This document shows positions 43,202-51,085 of a stretch of DNA of 64,000 nt, one piece after another (the stretch's first letter is position 1; every line of letters begins with the position of its first letter). Source of the stretch: an uncultured delta proteobacterium (GTDB lineage Bacteria; Desulfobacterota; Binatia; UBA9968). The notes beneath the pieces are model-generated. The model saw nothing but the letters and a program-made list of their open reading frames with translations, did not search any database and was not told the origin of the DNA. Made by a program: the position numbers and the translations under genes. The stretch spans positions 96,001-160,000 of the forward strand of contig CAVYTU010000014.1 in assembly GCA_963771465.1 (NCBI GenBank). Direction: 5' to 3'.

Positions 43202-44908
43202 ATGCTCTCCAAGTTAACTCTCGCTCTGCGCTCCTATTCGCAGGTCACTATTTTTTACTATCTCCTGTTTTTTGTCCTGATCTTCCTTGTCCTGTACCCA
43301 ATTTTGATGCTGCTCACCGCGAGCTTTTTCACCGGCCAACCGGGGGCATGGGGGCAATTTACCTTGGCGGGCTACCGAGAACTTTATGAAACAGAGGGAA
43401 TTGCGGAAATATTTTTTAACAGTTTGATTTACGCTTCGGCGCGCACAGGCATCAGTCTCCTATTGGCTTTGATCTTCGCGTGGGCGGTTGCCCGCAGCCA
43501 AATTCCCTATCGGGGTCTCATGGAGGTTTTGCTCCCGATACCCTTTTTTATACCTGACCTGCTTACAGCAATTTCATGGGTCATGATCGCCAACCCGCAA
43601 AATGGTCTCATCAATCAGTTTTTTTTCTCGTATTTTGGCGTGCGCGAACCCGTGGTGAACATTTACGGGTGGGGCGGGCTCATTTTTCACTCCGTTTTAA
43701 GCACGACGGCTTTTCTTTACCTGCTGCTGGTTGGATTTTTCTACAATATGGACCCGTCCTACGAGGAAGCCTCGACGGCCTGCGGCGCTAGTCAATTCTT
43801 AACCACCTTCAAGATCACGCTGCCGATGCTTTTGCCAGCCATACTGGGCGTTTCGATTCTTTCATTCATTCGCGGGCTAGAATCTTTTGAAGATCCCTAC
43901 CTCTTTGGCACGCCGGGCGGCGTTTACGTATTCGCCAATGAAATTTACCGCGTCCTGAGGCACCGCCATCCGCCCCAGTACAACGCCGCCACCGGGCTCG
44001 CCGTTATCCTCATGATCGTCACCTTCATTTTGGTCGCAACGCAGTGGAAGATCTTGGGCAACCGGCAATTCACGACGATCAGCGCCAAAGGTTACCAGCC
44101 ACGGCGCATCAAACCTCATCCATTAATCGGCTGGTCCATTTTTGCTTTATTCATTGTTTATTTCACACTGGCGATTCTCATTCCCTTGACACAAATCTTC
44201 GTTAGTTCGTTCTTCAAGGTGTTCGGTCTCTACAACCCGGAGCACTTCACCTTCGACAATTGGCTTAAGGTGCTCCGTGATCCACGCACCATGGGAGGCT
44301 TGCGCAATACGATTATCTTTTCCACCCTCGCCGCCGCCGGGGTGATCACTCTCGGCGGCTTTATCGGTTACATTCGGATTCGAACAAAACACTGGCTCGG
44401 ACCGACGATGGAACTCACGGCCTGGTTGCCCTGGACTCTACCTGGCATCGTGTTGGGATTGGCTCTGCTATGGGCCTGGATATCCCTGCCCCAACCCTTC
44501 AATCTCTACGGGACTTCAGCAATTGTCATCCTCGGCTTTATCGTCAACGGGCTTCCCCTGGGAACTCGCACCATGCAATCCGCGATCATGCAGGTAAGCA
44601 AGGACTTGGAGGAATGTTCCATGGTCCACGGCGCGTCTTGGCTCCAGACCATGGCGTACATCGTGTTGCCGTTGTTACGCATCGGAATTGCTGGTGCCTT
44701 CGTGATTGTCTTTGCGCTATCCGCGCGCAGCCTGACGATTCCACTGCTCCTATACTCTTACGGGACGGAGACTTTGACGATATCTCTGCTCTATTACTAT
44801 GAAGAAGGCTATCGCAATATTACGGCTGTCATTGCCGTGATCCAACTTGCACTGGTGATGGGACTGCTACTGCTTGAGAAGTTGACAAGGCCGCGCAGCA
44901 CAGATTGA
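43202..44908 (+). CDS. ABC permease, FbpB-type, two EAA domains
   Basis: DPSYEEASTACGA and DLEECSMVHGA loops, about 12 TM segments. Confidence 0.9.
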   Translation: MLSKLTLALRSYSQVTIFYYLLFFVLIFLVLYPILMLLTASFFTGQPGAWGQFTLAGYRELYETEGIAEIFFNSLIYASARTGISLLLALIFAWAVARSQIPYRGLMEVLLPIPFFIPDLLTAISWVMIANPQNGLINQFFFSYFGVREPVVNIYGWGGLIFHSVLSTTAFLYLLLVGFFYNMDPSYEEASTACGASQFLTTFKITLPMLLPAILGVSILSFIRGLESFEDPYLFGTPGGVYVFANEIYRVLRHRHPPQYNAATGLAVILMIVTFILVATQWKILGNRQFTTISAKGYQPRRIKPHPLIGWSIFALFIVYFTLAILIPLTQIFVSSFFKVFGLYNPEHFTFDNWLKVLRDPRTMGGLRNTIIFSTLAAAGVITLGGFIGYIRIRTKHWLGPTMELTAWLPWTLPGIVLGLALLWAWISLPQPFNLYGTSAIVILGFIVNGLPLGTRTMQSAIMQVSKDLEECSMVHGASWLQTMAYIVLPLLRIGIAGAFVIVFALSARSLTIPLLLYSYGTETLTISLLYYYEEGYRNITAVIAVIQLALVMGLLLLEKLTRPRSTD

Positions 44909-45147
44909 CCTGGATACCGTTGTTAAACCGCCGGGCCTGCGTGAGCGAGAGCAGAACATCGTATGCCGCCTCCCGTGGTTAGAGTTTACTTTCAGAGGTA
45001 GACCGACAGCACCTCGCTAAACTGGATGAGGCAATATCCAACAGTCTGCAAAATAGGGCGTCTATTTGACCACCCCTTGACGATCACCCACCATTCGCTG
45101 TTAGATAAGGAAAATGACATCGCCAACGAGGAGGTTCGCGGGCAACA

Positions 45148-45549
45148 ATGGCTATCCCTGGTGAAAAAGCGATACAAATGGTGCGCAGCGCGCACGCTCA
45201 AGCGGCAAAGTTAGACATAGCGGTAACTGCTGTGGTGGTCGATCCAAGCGGGCGCATGATCGCCCTCGGGCGTATGGATAGGGCGCGGCCGATCACGGTG
45301 GAGATCGCCATGAACAAGGCTTACACGGCGGCAAGCTTTCAGCAGCCGACCAAAGATTTGGCCGGCGTGGCAAATCAAGCTTGGTTTCAAAGTCTGGTGG
45401 TATCGAGCAACGGCAAGGTCATGCCGGGCGGCGGCGCGGTGCCGATTAACGAAGGCGGTAACATTGTCGGCGCCATCGCGGTCTCGGGCGGCACTGACGA
45501 TCAGGATCAGCAATGCGCCGAGGTAGCGCTGGCAAACTATCAAGGGTAA
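45148..45549 (+). CDS. GlcG/HbpS (PduO C-terminal-like) tetrapyrrole-binding protein
   Basis: AVVVD..G, RMD.A, IA..KAYTA, GGAVPI, GAIAVSGGT..QD..CA. Confidence 0.92.
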   Translation: MAIPGEKAIQMVRSAHAQAAKLDIAVTAVVVDPSGRMIALGRMDRARPITVEIAMNKAYTAASFQQPTKDLAGVANQAWFQSLVVSSNGKVMPGGGAVPINEGGNIVGAIAVSGGTDDQDQQCAEVALANYQG

Positions 45550-45634
45550 GATAGACACAGAGAATAGAGACACCTCGCTTTCCCTTCTCGGTCTCTAGCT
45601 CGTGTCTCTACCTGATTTAACCGGAGGACCTAAA

Positions 45635-46951
45635 ATGTCAAAGGCTGAAAAGCTGGAGCCATCGCCTAAAAACAACGGCAGCGCCGAATTCCCCACTCCC
45701 TATCTCGGTCGCAGCGTGCGTATCGTCGACAAGTTCGTCAACGTCGATATGAATCAGTCGCCGCATCCGAAGAATCAGCGCGGCGAGTTGGGTAAGCCGC
45801 TCTTCAACTGGTACCACAACACGGTGTCGAAAGACCCGCTCACACGGGTTTCTGCGCCGAATCATTTCGCCGACCGGCGCCATTTTCTGAGCACGGTGGT
45901 CAACCAAGCGGCCAAAGGCAAAGTCAATCCAAAGAAAGTTCCAGTAAGCGATCCCGCCGCAATGGCGCGCCATATCAAAGCGGTGGCGCGCTACATGGGC
46001 GCCGACATCGTGCAGATCGCCAAATCCCATCCGACTTATCTTTACGCCGTCGGCGGCGGCCGCTATGTGCAGGACGGCACGGCCAAGGACGAGCACGGCG
46101 CTGCCACGCCGGAAGACTTGGCGCGCAAGTTTCCCTACATCATCATGTCGACCACGGCGTGGGACTACGACAAACTGCAAGCGCACCGCCACCTGATCGG
46201 CGACTCCGCGTATCATATCTCGCAGATCAAGGGCAACATGATTCTGAAAGCGCTCGAAGGTTACATCAAAGAACTCGGCTACACGGCGCTGCGCGGCGTG
46301 GCGGTGCCGCAAGCCGTGGGCATCGCCTCGGGAGTTGGCGAACTGGGACGCAACGGGCTGGTGATCAACAAAAAGTATGGCGCCCGCGTGCATATGCCCG
46401 ATCCGATCATGACCGACCTGCCACTCGTCGCCGACGAGCCGGTCGACATCGGCGTCGAGGATTTTTGTAAGATCTGCCGCAAGTGCGCCAACACCTGTCC
46501 GACCAATAGCATCCCCTTCGGCGATAAAGTCGTCCACAACGGCGTCGAGAAATACAAAATCAATTGGCTCACCTGCTATAAGCTTCGCCCTTACGTCCAC
46601 GACCAATGGGGCAGCTGCCTCACCTGCGCCGCGGTTTGTCCGTACACCAAGCCGCAGGCCTGGTGGCACAATCTCGCGACTTGGTCGTTGCACAGTTGTC
46701 CGTTCGCCCTGCGGCCGATTCTCGTCCGGTTTCTAAAATGGATCGACGACACGTTCTGGGGCGTGGTGCGTAATGGCCGCGTGCAGTGGCTCGGCTACGA
46801 CTCGGGCGTGAAACCCGGCGAGCATGCTTGCACGGTCTCCGGATGCACCGCGTCGCACGAAAAAGCTGGAACGACCGCCGTCACCGGCAACGTCGGCTAC
46901 TACGCGCCGCTCAAGGAGAATACCAACCGGTTCGTCAAGCGAGACGCATAG
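45635..46951 (+). CDS. Reductive dehalogenase-like cobalamin/2x[4Fe-4S] protein, cytoplasmic
   Basis: HIKAVARYMGADIV, YIKELGY.A, GVGELGRNG, TDLPL, CKICRKCANTCP and C-X13-CLTCAAVCP; GGAGG RBS; no N-terminal Tat signal. Confidence 0.85.
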   Translation: MSKAEKLEPSPKNNGSAEFPTPYLGRSVRIVDKFVNVDMNQSPHPKNQRGELGKPLFNWYHNTVSKDPLTRVSAPNHFADRRHFLSTVVNQAAKGKVNPKKVPVSDPAAMARHIKAVARYMGADIVQIAKSHPTYLYAVGGGRYVQDGTAKDEHGAATPEDLARKFPYIIMSTTAWDYDKLQAHRHLIGDSAYHISQIKGNMILKALEGYIKELGYTALRGVAVPQAVGIASGVGELGRNGLVINKKYGARVHMPDPIMTDLPLVADEPVDIGVEDFCKICRKCANTCPTNSIPFGDKVVHNGVEKYKINWLTCYKLRPYVHDQWGSCLTCAAVCPYTKPQAWWHNLATWSLHSCPFALRPILVRFLKWIDDTFWGVVRNGRVQWLGYDSGVKPGEHACTVSGCTASHEKAGTTAVTGNVGYYAPLKENTNRFVKRDA

Positions 46952-47520
46952 TGGCGTTTAAAATTCCCTGGTCGGGCAAAGATTCGCACCGCGACGATCC
47001 CTACTGGGATTTTTTCATTAACACGGCGCCGGCCGATCTCACCAACACGGTGACCGAGCTGATACGCAAGGCGCCGGCGGGAAATATTTTTCCAACCAAG
47101 GCAGAGCTGCACTCGCCGGAGATCACATCGAGCCACGTCAAGGGCATGGCGCAATACTTCGGCACGGAGTTGATCGGCATCACCAAGCTTGATGCCAACG
47201 ACACTGGCAATACTGACAATCTTCCATTTGCTGTCATCTGCGCCGTCCATGCCGATTACGATCCGCGCCGCTCGCCCGGTATCGGCGGACAAATGCCGGT
47301 GCAAAACGGCTTGTTCATCACCTTCGTCCTGAGTGCCTGGATTAGAGAACTCGGCTATCGCGCCATCGTCGTCCGCGACGCCGACACCGACGCGCTCGCG
47401 GCACGAGCCGGATTAGGGACCTTGAATGGCCAAGGCCGACTGGTGACCCGCGAATTCGCCGCCGACGTCTACGTCGCCGACGCCATTTATACCGACTTGC
47501 CGCTCGCCGCGGACGGCTAG
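46951..47520 (+). CDS. Truncated Rdh-like paralog (cobalamin-fold domain only, no Fe-S domain)
   Basis: GTG overlapping the upstream TAG; HVKGMAQYFGTELIGI, WIRELGYRA, AGLGTLNGQG, ends TDLPLAADG*. Confidence 0.8.
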   Translation: MAFKIPWSGKDSHRDDPYWDFFINTAPADLTNTVTELIRKAPAGNIFPTKAELHSPEITSSHVKGMAQYFGTELIGITKLDANDTGNTDNLPFAVICAVHADYDPRRSPGIGGQMPVQNGLFITFVLSAWIRELGYRAIVVRDADTDALAARAGLGTLNGQGRLVTREFAADVYVADAIYTDLPLAADG

Positions 47521-47675
47521 GCCCGGCCATTGCAGATTCGATATTTCAGATTCCAAATTCCAGAAATCGATCGTCGACTTTTCACGTGATCGAACATCGC
47601 GCGAAATTCGAGCGGCCGTGCGTTCTCGCCTGAACCCGCGTTGAATCTGCATTTGGCTCGTGTACATTGTTCCAA

Positions 47676-49079
47676 ATGCGCCGCACCAAAATCGTCTGCA
47701 CCATCGGTCCCGCCAGTTCGTCGGATAGAATGCTCGAACGCTTGATCCGCGCCGGCATGAACGTCGCGCGGCTAAACTTCAGTCACGGCGATTATGCGTC
47801 GCACCGCCGAGTGATTCGCAAGCTGCGCCAGCTCGAGCGCAAACTCCACAAGCCGGTGGCGATTCTTCAAGACCTGCCCGGCCCGAAAATTCGCATCGGC
47901 GCGATCGCCGGCGACCGCGTGCGTTTGCAAACGCGCCATCTTTACACCCTCACCAGCAGAAAAATTCTTGGCACGGAGCTGGCCGTTTCGGTAAACTTTC
48001 CGGGCCTGACCCGCGCTGTGAAAAAAGGCGATCCGATTCTGCTCGGCGACGGTGAGATCGAGCTCGAAGCACTGCAAGTCAGCAAGGATGAGGTCAAATG
48101 CCGCATCATCGTCGGCGGCATCTTGGGCTCGCACAAGGGCATTCATTTTCCGCGTAGCAGTTTGAATATTCGCGCCCTCACCCGTGACGACAAGAAAGAC
48201 CTGGCCTTCGGCATCGCCAACAAAGTCGACATGATCGCGCTGTCCTTCGTGCGCAACAGCCAGGACATTCTGTACGCCCGGCGCGAGATGCATCAGCGCG
48301 GCGCTAATATCCCGTTGATCGCCAAGATCGAAAAGCACGAAGCGTTGGACGAGCTCGAAGGCATTCTCGAAAACGTCGACGGCATCATGGTCGCGCGCGG
48401 TGACTTGGGATTGGAAATCGCCCAGCAGCGCATCCCCGCCATGCAAAAAATGATGATCCGCCAAGCCAATCACCTCGGCAAACCGGTGATCACCGCGACC
48501 CAGATGCTGCGCTCGATGGTATGGAATCCGCGGCCGACGCGCGCCGAAGTCGCGGACATTGCCAATGCGATCCTAGACGGCACCGATGCGCTGATGTTGT
48601 CCGAGGAAACCGCCGCCGGCGAATATCCCCTGGAAGCGGTCAAGATCATGGCGCAAGTGGCCGAGGAAACCGAAATATTGCTCGAACCGCGCGAGCGCTT
48701 CGCTGGCCTGGCTAAGACCGTGCCCGAGGCGATCAGCGTGAGCGCGATCTCACTGGCCCGCGATCTGCAAGTCAAAGCGTTTCTGATACCGACCACTTCA
48801 GGCAGTACGGCGCGGCTGATCGCGCGTTATCGGCCGCGCCAACCGATCATCGCCGTCAGTCCCGATCCTCAGACGGTAAAAATGCTTTGCTTGGTTTGGG
48901 GCGTTTATCCGCAACCGACGCGCGGCTTTAAGAACACCGACGAGATGATCCGCGTGCTCCAGCAAAAGGCGCTCGAATCCGGCATCGTCAAACGCGGCGA
49001 CCTAGTCGCCATCACCGCAGGCCTGCCGCTGCACCAATCCGGCACCACCAATATGATCACTGCTAAAGTGATTGAGTAA
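47676..49079 (+). CDS. pyk: Pyruvate kinase
   Basis: RRTKIVCTIGP, ARLNFSHG, IAKIE, MVARGDLG, TATQML, PTRAE. Confidence 0.97.
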   Translation: MRRTKIVCTIGPASSSDRMLERLIRAGMNVARLNFSHGDYASHRRVIRKLRQLERKLHKPVAILQDLPGPKIRIGAIAGDRVRLQTRHLYTLTSRKILGTELAVSVNFPGLTRAVKKGDPILLGDGEIELEALQVSKDEVKCRIIVGGILGSHKGIHFPRSSLNIRALTRDDKKDLAFGIANKVDMIALSFVRNSQDILYARREMHQRGANIPLIAKIEKHEALDELEGILENVDGIMVARGDLGLEIAQQRIPAMQKMMIRQANHLGKPVITATQMLRSMVWNPRPTRAEVADIANAILDGTDALMLSEETAAGEYPLEAVKIMAQVAEETEILLEPRERFAGLAKTVPEAISVSAISLARDLQVKAFLIPTTSGSTARLIARYRPRQPIIAVSPDPQTVKMLCLVWGVYPQPTRGFKNTDEMIRVLQQKALESGIVKRGDLVAITAGLPLHQSGTTNMITAKVIE

Positions 49080-49249: not shown

Positions 49250-50263
49250 ATGTCCGAAGCGCTCAAAGCGTTCGAAGAAGAACTCCAAGCAAAAAGTTTC
49301 AAAGGCTATTGGCAGAACCAGCAGGGCGATTTCAAGCGCGAACCGGTAGCGTCGTTCGATTCCTGTATGTGGAAAGGGAAAGATCTTTTCGCCGCCATGG
49401 AAAAGGCAGGCGACGTGGTCGGCCTCGACGTGTCGTTTCGCCGCGTCATTCAGATGTGGAATCCAGCGCTCAAAAACGGCACCACGCGGACCCTCGTGCT
49501 CAATCTCCAGATGCTCAAGCCCGGCGAAGACGCGCTGTCACACCGCCACATGGCCGGTGCGATTCGTTTCATCTTGAAAGGCCACGGCACGCGCTTGATC
49601 GTCGAGGGCGAGTCGTTTGAGATTGGCGAAGGCGATTTCGTCACCACGCCCAGTTGGACGTGGCATGATCACGAAAACCGCGGCGAGACGATGATGTGGC
49701 TCGACGGCCTGGACGCGCCGCTGGTGCGTTTGCTCGAAACCGATTTTCACGAGCCCGACCCGCGCCGCAAGCAAACCGTGACGAAGCCCGAAGGCTACAC
49801 GCTGGCCACGGTCGGCGCGCTGCGTCCGGCGTGGCTGAAGCAAGACTCAGTTCAACCGCCGGCATTTTGTTACAAGTGGGCGGACACGGAGCGAGCGCTG
49901 AGCAAAGTCGGCGAGCAGCCCGGCGATCCCTATGACGGCATCGTGCTCGATTATGCCAATCCGTTGACCGGCGGACCGACCTTGCCGACGATGGCCTGTC
50001 AGATTCACATGCTGCGCGGCGGTGAAAAAACCAAGAGCCACCGCCACACGGCTTCGGTCATTTACCATGTCTGGCGCGGCAGCGGTGTGAGCTACGTCGG
50101 CGACAAGCGCTTCGAATGGGAACAAGGCGACTCCTTCGTCGTGCCGCTATGGCAGAATCATCGCCATGAGAATACGTCCAAAGATCCCGCGATCTTTTTC
50201 GTCATGTCCGACAAACCGTTGATGGACGCCATCGGCCACTACCGCGAAGAAGCCGCGGCGTAA
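49250..50263 (+). CDS. Gentisate 1,2-dioxygenase-like bicupin
   Basis: HRH...AIRF, TPSWTWHDH, WLDGLD.P, YANPLTGG, second HRHT. Confidence 0.9.
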   Translation: MSEALKAFEEELQAKSFKGYWQNQQGDFKREPVASFDSCMWKGKDLFAAMEKAGDVVGLDVSFRRVIQMWNPALKNGTTRTLVLNLQMLKPGEDALSHRHMAGAIRFILKGHGTRLIVEGESFEIGEGDFVTTPSWTWHDHENRGETMMWLDGLDAPLVRLLETDFHEPDPRRKQTVTKPEGYTLATVGALRPAWLKQDSVQPPAFCYKWADTERALSKVGEQPGDPYDGIVLDYANPLTGGPTLPTMACQIHMLRGGEKTKSHRHTASVIYHVWRGSGVSYVGDKRFEWEQGDSFVVPLWQNHRHENTSKDPAIFFVMSDKPLMDAIGHYREEAAA

Positions 50264-50311: not shown

Positions 50312-51085
50312 ATGTTCACGCTCTCGCAAAAATTAAATCCCGATGAATTCATCAAGACCTTCTTCGAAGCCAACCGGCAGGATCATCAGCGGCCGGCCCA
50401 TCCGTGGGACGAGATTTTTCGTAACGGCAAGTGCAGCCGAGAGCAGCTGCAAGGTTGGGGCAAGGAACGCTACTACTTCACCAAGCAGGTGCCGATCAAA
50501 GAGTACTCGATACTCTATAATTGCCCGCACACCGACGTGCGCCGCAGGTGGCTGCCCAAAGCGATCGAGGAGGAGGGCGAAGATTTGATCGGCAAGTCGG
50601 GCAAACCCCATCCCGAATACTGGCTCGATGTCTGCGTCGGCATGGGCATGGAGCGCGACTTCGTCAAGCATTCAGAACCGCTCTACGGCGTCAAATTTGC
50701 CGTCGACAGTTTCGCCAACGCGGCATTCAAAACCTCTTGGCTGCTCGGCGTCGCCGTTTCCGAAGGCGACGATACGGCGAAAGCGATGTCCCGCGACTTG
50801 GATATTTTCCGCAAGCACTATCCATGGGTGCCCGACGACGCCTTAACTTTCTACAAACTGCACGCCGATGTTGACGTGGAGCATGGCCTGATCCGCAAAG
50901 AGATTTTGCAAAAATACGCCGATACCAAAGAACTGCAAGAAGCCTGCATCAACGCCCAGCTGATGAAAAATAATATGCGCCGGGTGATGGCCGACTGCAT
51001 CTACATGACCTACGTGGTGCAAGGCATGAAGGTGAACGAGAACGGCGCCGCCAGCGTCGGTGAAAGCGTAGTTCCGATCAATTGA
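50312..51085 (+). CDS. PqqC/CADD/TenA-like heme-oxygenase-fold redox enzyme
   Basis: HPW, RYYF, EEEG...HPEYW, SE, FYKLH..VD.EH putative diiron ligands. Confidence 0.8.
   Translation: MFTLSQKLNPDEFIKTFFEANRQDHQRPAHPWDEIFRNGKCSREQLQGWGKERYYFTKQVPIKEYSILYNCPHTDVRRRWLPKAIEEEGEDLIGKSGKPHPEYWLDVCVGMGMERDFVKHSEPLYGVKFAVDSFANAAFKTSWLLGVAVSEGDDTAKAMSRDLDIFRKHYPWVPDDALTFYKLHADVDVEHGLIRKEILQKYADTKELQEACINAQLMKNNMRRVMADCIYMTYVVQGMKVNENGAASVGESVVPIN

Follow-up and report, generated by a model that had tools for sequence, protein, structure and literature searches.

A Predicted Heterodimer of a Cytoplasmic Reductive Dehalogenase-Like Enzyme and a Separately Encoded Core-Domain Copy in a DUF336-Associated Gene Module of Uncultured Soil Bacteria

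Introduction

Why would a bacterium keep, directly behind the gene of a reductive dehalogenase-like enzyme, a second and much shorter gene that repeats the core domain of that enzyme and stops where its Fe-S domain would begin? This question is raised by a locus of an uncultured delta proteobacterium (GTDB lineage Bacteria; Desulfobacterota; Binatia; UBA9968; assembly GCA_963771465.1), of which we analyzed positions 96,001 to 160,000 of the forward strand of contig CAVYTU010000014.1, a stretch of 64,000 nucleotides that is called the window here and from whose first letter all coordinates are counted. Three genes follow each other on its plus strand: GlcG1 (45148-45549), encoding a DUF336/HbpS-like protein of 133 amino acids; RdhL (45602-46951), an open reading frame of 449 amino acids from the GTG at 45602 for a cytoplasmic RdhA-type enzyme with a predicted corrinoid and two predicted [4Fe-4S] clusters; and RdhS (46951-47520), encoding 189 amino acids, a stand-alone version of the RdhA core that lacks the Fe-S domain and is, as we propose, the pseudo-dimer partner of RdhL. 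An initial annotation of the window had picked out this trio of a GlcG/HbpS gene, an Rdh-like gene and its short paralog, all of which we found in place, and had suggested that it encodes either a heterodimeric B12 reductase or an enzyme with its own B12 chaperone.

The best supported reading, with a probability that we put at roughly 0.6, is that RdhL and RdhS would form a 1:1 heterodimer, in which the architecture of the monomeric catabolic reductive dehalogenase NpRdhA is built from two genes. It draws on the anatomy, homology, conservation, co-occurrence and RNA-library presence observed for these genes, to which the predicted folds and the predicted complex add computed support.

Results

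Anatomy of the RdhL-RdhS Gene Pair

The two genes are joined by a TAGTG stop/start overlap (46949-46953), in which the TAG of RdhL and the GTG of RdhS have one base in common. RdhS ends with ...TDLPLAADG, and at the same point RdhL goes on with TDLPLVADEPVDIGVEDFCKIC into its first Fe-S motif, so that the overlap and the end of the 189-amino-acid paralog are as initially annotated. Compared with residues 90-278 of RdhL (residue numbers being counted from the GTG at 45602 throughout), RdhS is 26% identical (E 1e-15). An alternative start of RdhL, the ATG at 45635, is the likelier one because GGAGGA (45623-45628) stands 6 nt 5' of it and because the resulting 438 amino acids are the length of the ortholog P0121.

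On inspection of the sequence, the N-terminus of RdhL is polar, with neither a twin-arginine translocation (Tat) leader nor a hydrophobic stretch, and an rdhB-like small membrane gene is absent beside RdhL, the flanking genes being GlcG1 and RdhS. RdhL therefore lacks both the Tat leader and the adjacent rdhB of the respiratory RdhAB type, and the early description of a full Rdh-like protein with two Fe-S motifs, no Tat signal and no rdhB is borne out by its sequence and its neighbors. An internal RRHFL of RdhL (residues 92-96, 45875-45889; RR[HNQ]FL in orthologs) resembles a Tat motif; it was rejected as a Tat signal, as it lies about 90 residues from the N-terminus, is followed by no hydrophobic stretch and is absent from a paralog described below, and we read it as chance or as a fossil.

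RdhS Is Conserved and Occurs Together With RdhL

If the short gene were a non-conserved, neutrally evolving duplication, as was considered possible at the outset, it should be erratic in its occurrence, length and substitution pattern. It is conserved instead. Among 1817 near-length candidates, 1582 were homologous to RdhS at E <= 0.001, a number that places the observation far above chance, with lengths of 187-223 amino acids among the 120 matches listed. A library clustered at 50% identity gave 193 matches at E <= 0.001, mostly of 180-215 amino acids, and the ESM Atlas returned only clusters called hypothetical protein. In a set of 41 genomes, made up of the organism's own and its relatives, RdhS was present in 23, one of which (G005) is flagged unpublished, and an RdhL ortholog was present in the same 23 and no others; the four genomes of the same genus without RdhS are 60-82% complete.

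A wider scan collected 47 loci with an RdhS ortholog (L045-L091), several of which are the same contigs as 11 relatives' loci that were analyzed separately. The loci carry the labels Binatia, "Deltaproteobacteria", Rokuibacteriota, Methylomirabilota, Chloroflexota/Dehalococcoidia, Acidiferrales, Eisenbacteria and Gammaproteobacteria. RdhL lies directly 5' of RdhS in 47/47 of them, and its identity to the protein of the window is 58-95% in 46/47 loci and 43% in one Dehalococcoidia locus. The junction of the two genes is tight in all 11 relatives' loci, being TAGTG in six, as in the window, and TAAGTG in five. In these 11 loci the order GlcG1-RdhL-RdhS is always kept.

Pairwise Nei-Gojobori ratios of nonsynonymous to synonymous substitution (dN/dS), which are rough values here, had medians of 0.042 for GlcG1, 0.107 for RdhL, 0.146 for RdhS and 0.150 for GlcG2, the fourth gene introduced below. 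For RdhS the range was 0.106-0.208, with 39/45 pairs usable after exclusion of two loci in which RdhS is broken or short. RdhS is a conserved gene under purifying selection, with a dN/dS of about 0.15, and the suspicion of neutral evolution is not upheld. In four loci RdhL (L055, L059) or RdhS (L086, L089) is spread over two frames; all four belong to the MFD... series of metagenome-assembled genomes (MAGs), and the split frames are probably assembly indels rather than pseudogenes.

Predicted Fold of RdhS

The model of RdhS is confident, with a predicted local distance difference test (pLDDT) of 89.5 and a predicted template modeling score of 0.84. In a Foldseek search with this model, NpRdhA and PceA gave E values of about 2e-8 to 3e-8 and ranked above QueG (5e-5). 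With a second aligner the best match was to residues 38-220 of NpRdhA (Z 17.7, root-mean-square deviation 3.2, 161 residues aligned), followed by the PceA core (Z 13.7), QueG (Z 12.0), CblD (Z 7.6) and CblC (Z 6.9). The values for CblC and CblD, Z 6.8-7.6, are at a level that is common for unrelated models, and there was no sequence match to either protein.

The region of NpRdhA that RdhS fits best belongs to its N-terminal vestigial domain, which is described as cobalamin-free and as imitating the monomer-monomer interface of PceA (passages of PMC10463259). Because RdhL covers residues 269-677 of NpRdhA and RdhS fits 38-220, the two predicted structures together would rebuild NpRdhA, with the order of the genes reversed. 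An origin of RdhS in a vestigial domain fused at the N-terminus was considered as well and is unsupported, since RdhS is about equally near to the C-terminal core (30% identity) and to the N-terminal domain (28%) of the protein P0318, whose own two domains are 39% alike. Judged from these identities, the partner domain probably arose more than once, with the duplication behind RdhS being an independent one.

Whether RdhS itself holds a corrinoid can be approached through the polar contacts listed for the corrinoid of Desulfitobacterium hafniense PceA (DhPceA), three of six of which (N454, H461, S479) lie in the Fe-S/C-terminal half of that protein (passages of PMC10624902). This half is absent from RdhS, and the N-terminal contact N68 is also outside the region that RdhS covers. 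When mapped by alignment (offset 48), RdhS has Val and Ala where DhPceA has its contacts H395 and K399.

Predicted RdhL-RdhS Complex

Three prediction runs of the complex gave values of 0.88, 0.88 and 0.86 for the interface score ipSAE, whereas the highest value among three controls was 0.00. The mark passed by this pair is reached by 58/80 solved complexes and 2/110 mismatched pairs, counts that are rough here as our own alignments were used. The runs agreed in at least 86% of their contacts, of which there were 130-143, and the partner chain had a pLDDT of 88. In the predicted complex, the interface is made of helices that are homologous in both chains (RdhL 117-132 and 206-225, RdhS 54-70 and 111-135), which would give it a pseudo-two-fold symmetry, and the N-terminal arm and C-terminal tail of RdhL (84-94 and 396-449), which are disordered in the monomer model, are placed in the interface. 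Residues of RdhS at the interface are modestly more conserved than those elsewhere (0.68 vs. 0.59, Mann-Whitney p 0.013).

Of the two possibilities put forward initially, a heterodimeric B12 reductase is therefore favored by adjacency, co-occurrence, selection, fold and complex prediction, while an accompanying B12 chaperone finds weak support, with CblD and CblC at Z of about 7 and non-polar residues at two corrinoid columns.

Family Placement and Active Site of RdhL

RdhL scored 155.4 bits against the reductive dehalogenase (RDH) model TIGR02486, narrowly below the cut-off of 160.35, and 54.5 bits against the QueG model TIGR00276, for which the cut-off is 200, so that it falls outside formal membership of either family; Pfam gave Fer4 families alone at E <= 1. 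A profile of the RdhL family matched the solved structures of NpRdhA, PceA and QueG with 210, 180 and 54 bits, respectively. The AlphaFold model of RdhL, with a mean pLDDT of 70.9 and a core well over 85, was superposed on residues 269-677 of NpRdhA with Z 29.4 (root-mean-square deviation 3.2, 324 residues aligned), on PceA of D. hafniense with Z 28.8, on PceA of Sulfurospirillum multivorans with Z 27.5 and on QueG with Z 14.4. Based on these model scores and fold scores, RdhL groups with the reductive dehalogenases and not with QueG, a genuine copy of which is encoded elsewhere in the genome (TIGR00276, 407.2 bits); a QueG affiliation, which would have undone the proposal made at the outset, is contradicted on all three counts.

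As far as cofactors can be predicted, RdhL has the architecture of RdhA, a nitroreductase-like corrinoid core followed by a two-cluster ferredoxin domain. Its first Fe-S motif, C289xxC292xxC295xxxC299P (46466-46501; Fer4_7, E 2.7e-7), and its second, C325...C339xxC342xxxC346P (46574-46642), were read from the sequence, and all eight cysteines are invariant in 23 aligned sequences. The active site differs. The catalytic Tyr (PceA Y246, NpRdhA Y426) corresponds to Gln208 in RdhL (codon 46223-46225), and the Arg/Lys (PceA R305, NpRdhA K488) to His264 (codon 46391-46393), in single-sequence as well as profile alignments; among the 23 sequences, Gln is found in 19 and His in 20. A His at the usual Lys/Arg position, in GARVH, had been noticed by eye, and the alignments to solved structures agree with it and add the replacement of the Tyr. 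RdhL thus lacks the catalytic Tyr and Arg/Lys of RdhA, whereas the column of NpRdhA R552 is R329 in RdhL, with Arg in 19 and Lys in 2 of the 23 sequences. The roles of these NpRdhA residues are taken from passages of PMC10463259, and PDB 6zy0 is a K488Q variant of NpRdhA. Because Gln208 and His264 stand in place of the catalytic Tyr and Lys/Arg, RdhL may not be an ordinary dehalogenase. Its chemistry is probably not textbook dehalogenation.

The C-terminal part of RdhL contains a further motif, C410-x4-C415-x3-H419 (46829-46858), which is present in 21/23 aligned sequences. The monomer model is of low confidence for this motif (residues 410-419), where the pLDDT is below 50, and for the GYYAPLKENTNRFVKR tail at the C-terminus, which is nearly invariant. 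In the predicted complex, residues 410, 412, 414-415 and 417 are within contact of RdhS. The C-x4-C-x3-H tail may be an extra metal site.

The same genome (G000) encodes a second RdhL-type paralog of 398 amino acids on another contig (G000:C16; L038 6474-7670, minus strand), which is 42% identical to RdhL and, at 163.0 bits, above the cut-off of TIGR02486. Like RdhL, it has His in the column of K488 and a C-x4-C-x3-H tail, and its neighbors are genes for solute-binding proteins and two cupin genes. Paralogs of this kind were also found in G002, G009, G012, G014 and G018.

A Four-Gene Module With Two DUF336 Proteins

GlcG1, initially described as a GlcG/HbpS gene just upstream of RdhL, indeed matches PF03928 (E 1.8e-31, 109.2 bits, cut-off 25). 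Upstream of RdhL and on the same strand, it is present in 39/47 loci, with orthologs of 74-91% identity; four loci could not be assessed, and four Chloroflexota-labeled loci are without it. The trio is real, but it is not the whole module, as relatives carry a fourth gene: in 11/11 relatives' loci, RdhS is followed by a two-cluster ferredoxin fused to a second DUF336 domain (GlcG2), which is 42-49% identical to GlcG1. The ferredoxin-DUF336 gene stands 3' of RdhS in 42/47 loci, and four of the other five end at RdhS or no more than about 160 nt after it. The remaining one, L046, whose RdhL is 95% identical to that of the window, is the sole locus with room for the gene yet without it.

In the window itself, the spacer of 146 nt between RdhS and a pyruvate kinase gene (47521-47666), which is the site of the fusion gene in relatives, is empty. 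The organism has a ferredoxin-DUF336 gene on another contig (G000:C16; L040 1477-2169, minus strand), the product of which matches PF03928 (91.6 bits) and Fer4. There (G000:C16:105065-105451, L040) it adjoins a gene for an NMT1-type binding protein, as it does in relatives. The ferredoxin-DUF336 gene has been lost from its place behind RdhS in G000 and its close relative L046, and the arrangement on C16 suggests a rearrangement breakpoint in the spacer between RdhS and the ferredoxin.

The best solved match of the ferredoxin domain of GlcG2 is a seven-iron (7Fe) ferredoxin, 1bc6 (E 8.6e-19). Against two FdxA models it scored 69 and 53.5 bits, relative to cut-offs of 125 and 135 that are set for whole proteins. 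The closest solved relatives of GlcG1 are OrfY (2a2l, E 3.2e-16), NahX and PduO-C (5cx7, E 4.2e-12); the literature on NahX yielded nothing relevant. According to passages of PMC4923194, OrfY and PduO-C are encoded in dha and pdu loci that depend on B12, His18 is the residue by which PduO-C ligates heme, and the dissociation constant of HbpS for aquo-cobalamin in vitro is 34 uM. The column of this His18 is Ile9 in GlcG1, which thus lacks this heme ligand but may have another binding mode, and Gln in OrfY (as also given in the same passages), whereas His16 of GlcG1 is conserved in at least 95% of 40 sequences. By analogy with these relatives, the DUF336 proteins may have a corrinoid role, and a redox role can be argued for them because of the fusion to a ferredoxin.

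No further conserved neighbors were found in the 47 loci, the next being an NMT1-type binding protein in 13/47, and the genes for an ABC transporter, pyruvate kinase and cupin proteins that the window carries were not matched in any of the 11 relatives' loci at E 1e-5. Downstream of the pyruvate kinase gene, the window contains a bicupin gene (49250-50263) with two Cupin_2 domains and the look of a gentisate-type dioxygenase, and a gene of the TENA/PqqC family (50312-51085), neither of which is kept beside the module in relatives. As to the cofactor supply of the genome, which is 99% complete, a search for CbiC (PF02570) was negative, and CobS (PF02654) is present in two adjacent frames (C14:485022-485635). 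On this gene content, the organism may be a salvager of corrinoids rather than a maker.

Presence in RNA Libraries

Six RNA-labeled runs from soil or sediment contain part of the stretch of the locus; with four of the six runs compared, run X13 gave 8/8 pieces at at least 99%. Stretches of the locus without RNA-contig cover are uninformative. The junction of RdhL and RdhS is bridged by contigs of X13 (46910-47133) and X16 (46781-47215), from soil metatranscriptomes of two studies, which fits co-transcription of the two genes without proving it. A promoter scan of 44800-47800 returned 0 promoter-like sites, and a terminator scan of the same region returned five terminator-like sites, an uninformative number next to the 3.5 +/- 2.3 found in shuffled sequences.

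Discussion

A Two-Gene Version of a Pseudo-Dimeric Enzyme

Taken together, we hypothesize that RdhL is the working subunit, with the corrinoid site and two [4Fe-4S] clusters, and that RdhS would be a cofactor-less copy of the core domain standing in place of the second monomer of PceA or of the vestigial domain of NpRdhA. The heterodimer would then hold one corrinoid, and the stop/start overlap could provide for matched amounts of its two chains. The reaction would be a Co(I)-based reduction in the cytoplasm, with electrons probably arriving via the putative 7Fe-ferredoxin-DUF336 fusion GlcG2, acting together with GlcG1, and the DUF336 proteins might provide an oligomeric scaffold or a relay that binds a tetrapyrrole.

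Several points weigh against this model. The complex prediction set the heterodimer against three controls, and its high scores may stem from likeness to solved structures known to the model, namely PceA dimers and NpRdhA; the binding of RdhL to RdhS, the cofactor content and the activity are predictions. Invariant residues of RdhS are not significantly enriched at the interface (11/29, Fisher p 0.057), and RdhS keeps the motifs IRELGY, AGLG and TDLPL of corrinoid cores, which are compatible with a ligand site. The RdhL-type paralog on C16 has no adjoining RdhS, and therefore enzymes of the RdhL clade may not always need a partner of the RdhS type. Since the ferredoxin-DUF336 gene is unlinked in this genome, its co-expression with the other genes is not assured. 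Furthermore, dS is about 1-1.5, near saturation, which makes the dN/dS values rough, and contigs from RNA libraries can contain DNA, so that they do not prove a single transcript.

Alternative Explanations

The simplest alternative, that RdhS is a decaying and functionless relic of a tandem duplication, could appeal to its truncation exactly at a domain border, to its split into two frames in two long-read MAG loci (L086, L089) and to its being 18 residues short in L034. It is contradicted by the conservation data and is scarcely credible, considering that dN/dS is 0.11-0.21, that near-length homologs are so many and that the model is confident; length and position are kept in 47/47 loci under several phylum labels, and co-occurrence with RdhL is perfect in the 41 genomes. 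Two loci of that long-read MAG set (L055, L059) have a split RdhL as well, an indication of sequencing errors. A functional RdhS need not be a permanent subunit, since it might instead handle B12 in the manner of CblD or CblC, binding and escorting the corrinoid and loading it into RdhL. The distant likeness of its nitroreductase-like fold to CblD and CblC, the retained AGLG and TDLPL motifs of corrinoid-binding cores, the seemingly salvaging lifestyle of the organism (with CobS and apparently without CbiC) and the DUF336 proteins of the operon, whose relative HbpS binds aquo-cobalamin (PMC4923194, in part), are all in line with such a role. We nevertheless consider it improbable, because the fit to the cobalamin-free domain of NpRdhA is far stronger (Z 17.7 vs. 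about 7), the half that supplies the N454, H461 and S479 contacts is absent and N68 lies outside the covered region (PMC10624902, in part), Val and Ala occupy the H395 and K399 columns, and a large, pseudo-symmetric predicted interface of 130-143 contacts suits a stable partner.

Both of these alternatives concern RdhS, whereas a third concerns the reaction. The pair might be a plain catabolic reductive dehalogenase for natural halo-aromatics of soil, in which His264 replaces the Lys/Arg and some other residue is the proton donor. RdhL is nearest to the dehalogenases by sequence and fold, the equivalent of NpRdhA R552 is retained (R329), and both RdhL-type paralogs of this genome have bicupin dioxygenase-like genes no more than a few kb away. 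However, two of three key residues of NpRdhA are altered (Y426 to Gln, K488 to His), RdhL is slightly below the cut-off of the RDH family, and there is no catabolic gene among the conserved neighbors in the 47 loci. Moreover, the identity across phylum labels (58-95% for RdhL in 46/47 loci, 74-91% for GlcG1) is unusually high for an enzyme of xenobiotics, and a common endogenous substrate fits better. Ordinary dehalogenation is thus somewhat unlikely, if a contender worth keeping. A more far-reaching proposal is that GlcG1, RdhL, RdhS and the ferredoxin-GlcG2 fusion make up a self-contained B12 reductase system, a third functional class of the RdhA/QueG superfamily, which would use its Gln/His site on a common endogenous metabolite, or one ubiquitous in soil, rather than on xenobiotic organohalides, and in which DUF336 would be a ferredoxin-fed tetrapyrrole relay or a corrinoid handler. 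This proposal is speculative, and we think it rather unlikely in this full form.

Significance

Oxygen-tolerant reductive dehalogenases of the catabolic type are in demand for bioremediation and as models for the chemistry of B12. To our knowledge, those described to date are single polypeptides to which the dummy domain is fused. If the RdhL-RdhS heterodimer is real, a two-gene version would imply that the dummy domain is a modular partner that can evolve separately and has arisen more than once, and it would offer a natural system for probing what this domain does. The Gln/His pair suggests chemistry beyond dehalogenation, as does a very high degree of conservation in several uncultured phyla from soil. 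In addition, the two constant DUF336 companions, one of them fused to a putative 7Fe ferredoxin, provide a handle on the role of this family beside B12 enzymes, where PduO-C and OrfY also occur; should the proposed third class exist, this would be the first defined role of DUF336 beside a B12 enzyme. The genes of the module are abundant in soil metagenomes and present in soil RNA libraries, and the module is of real interest for B12 enzymology.

Comparison With Known Systems

A full-text literature search turned up neither an account of a vestigial domain with a gene of its own nor one of a link between RdhA and DUF336, and a fusion of DUF336 to a 7Fe ferredoxin was not found in the literature searched. 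The nearest known system is NpRdhA of Nitratireductor pacificus (PDB 4ras, 6zxu, 6zy0; relatives BhbA and JtRdhA), which is likewise cytoplasmic, without a Tat leader or RdhB, and likewise combines a corrinoid core and two [4Fe-4S] clusters with a second, cobalamin-free copy of the core packed on the active one. In NpRdhA, however, the vestigial domain is fused in front of the catalytic part, whereas here the start of RdhL corresponds to NpRdhA residue 269, without any such fused domain, and RdhS is a separate gene after the catalytic one. The Y426 and K488 of NpRdhA are Gln and His in RdhL. RdhL also differs from the NpRdhA type in having no fused NAD(P)H reductase, its associated redox partner being the putative 7Fe-ferredoxin-DUF336 protein.

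By length and domains, RdhL would belong with the "simplified cytosolic" RdhA-like proteins of Desulfobacterota and Chloroflexota, which are described as having about 400 amino acids and no fused vestigial domain (PMC12219181, in part). The consulted passages of that paper make no mention of a separately encoded partner domain or of DUF336 neighbors. PduO-C, OrfY and HbpS have PF03928 in common with GlcG1 and with the corresponding domain of GlcG2.

A similar logic, though with no claim of membership, is found in CblC and CblD (MMACHC and MMADHC; 9mrs, 5cuz, Z about 7), where an active nitroreductase-like B12 protein is likewise accompanied by a degenerate paralog of the same fold. CblC differs in that its fold is only distantly related, it has no Fe-S domain, and it acts on the cofactor rather than on a substrate.

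Finally, the respiratory RdhA/PceA enzymes (S. multivorans, 4uqu; D. hafniense, 8q4h) have the same core fold and Fe-S domain as RdhL (Z 27-29), and their functional unit likewise pairs two core domains. RdhL has not kept Tyr246 and Arg305, the catalytic residues of PceA. PceA is a homodimer with two active sites, exported through the Tat pathway and anchored by RdhB, whereas RdhL and RdhS are predicted to form a cytoplasmic heterodimer with one active site.

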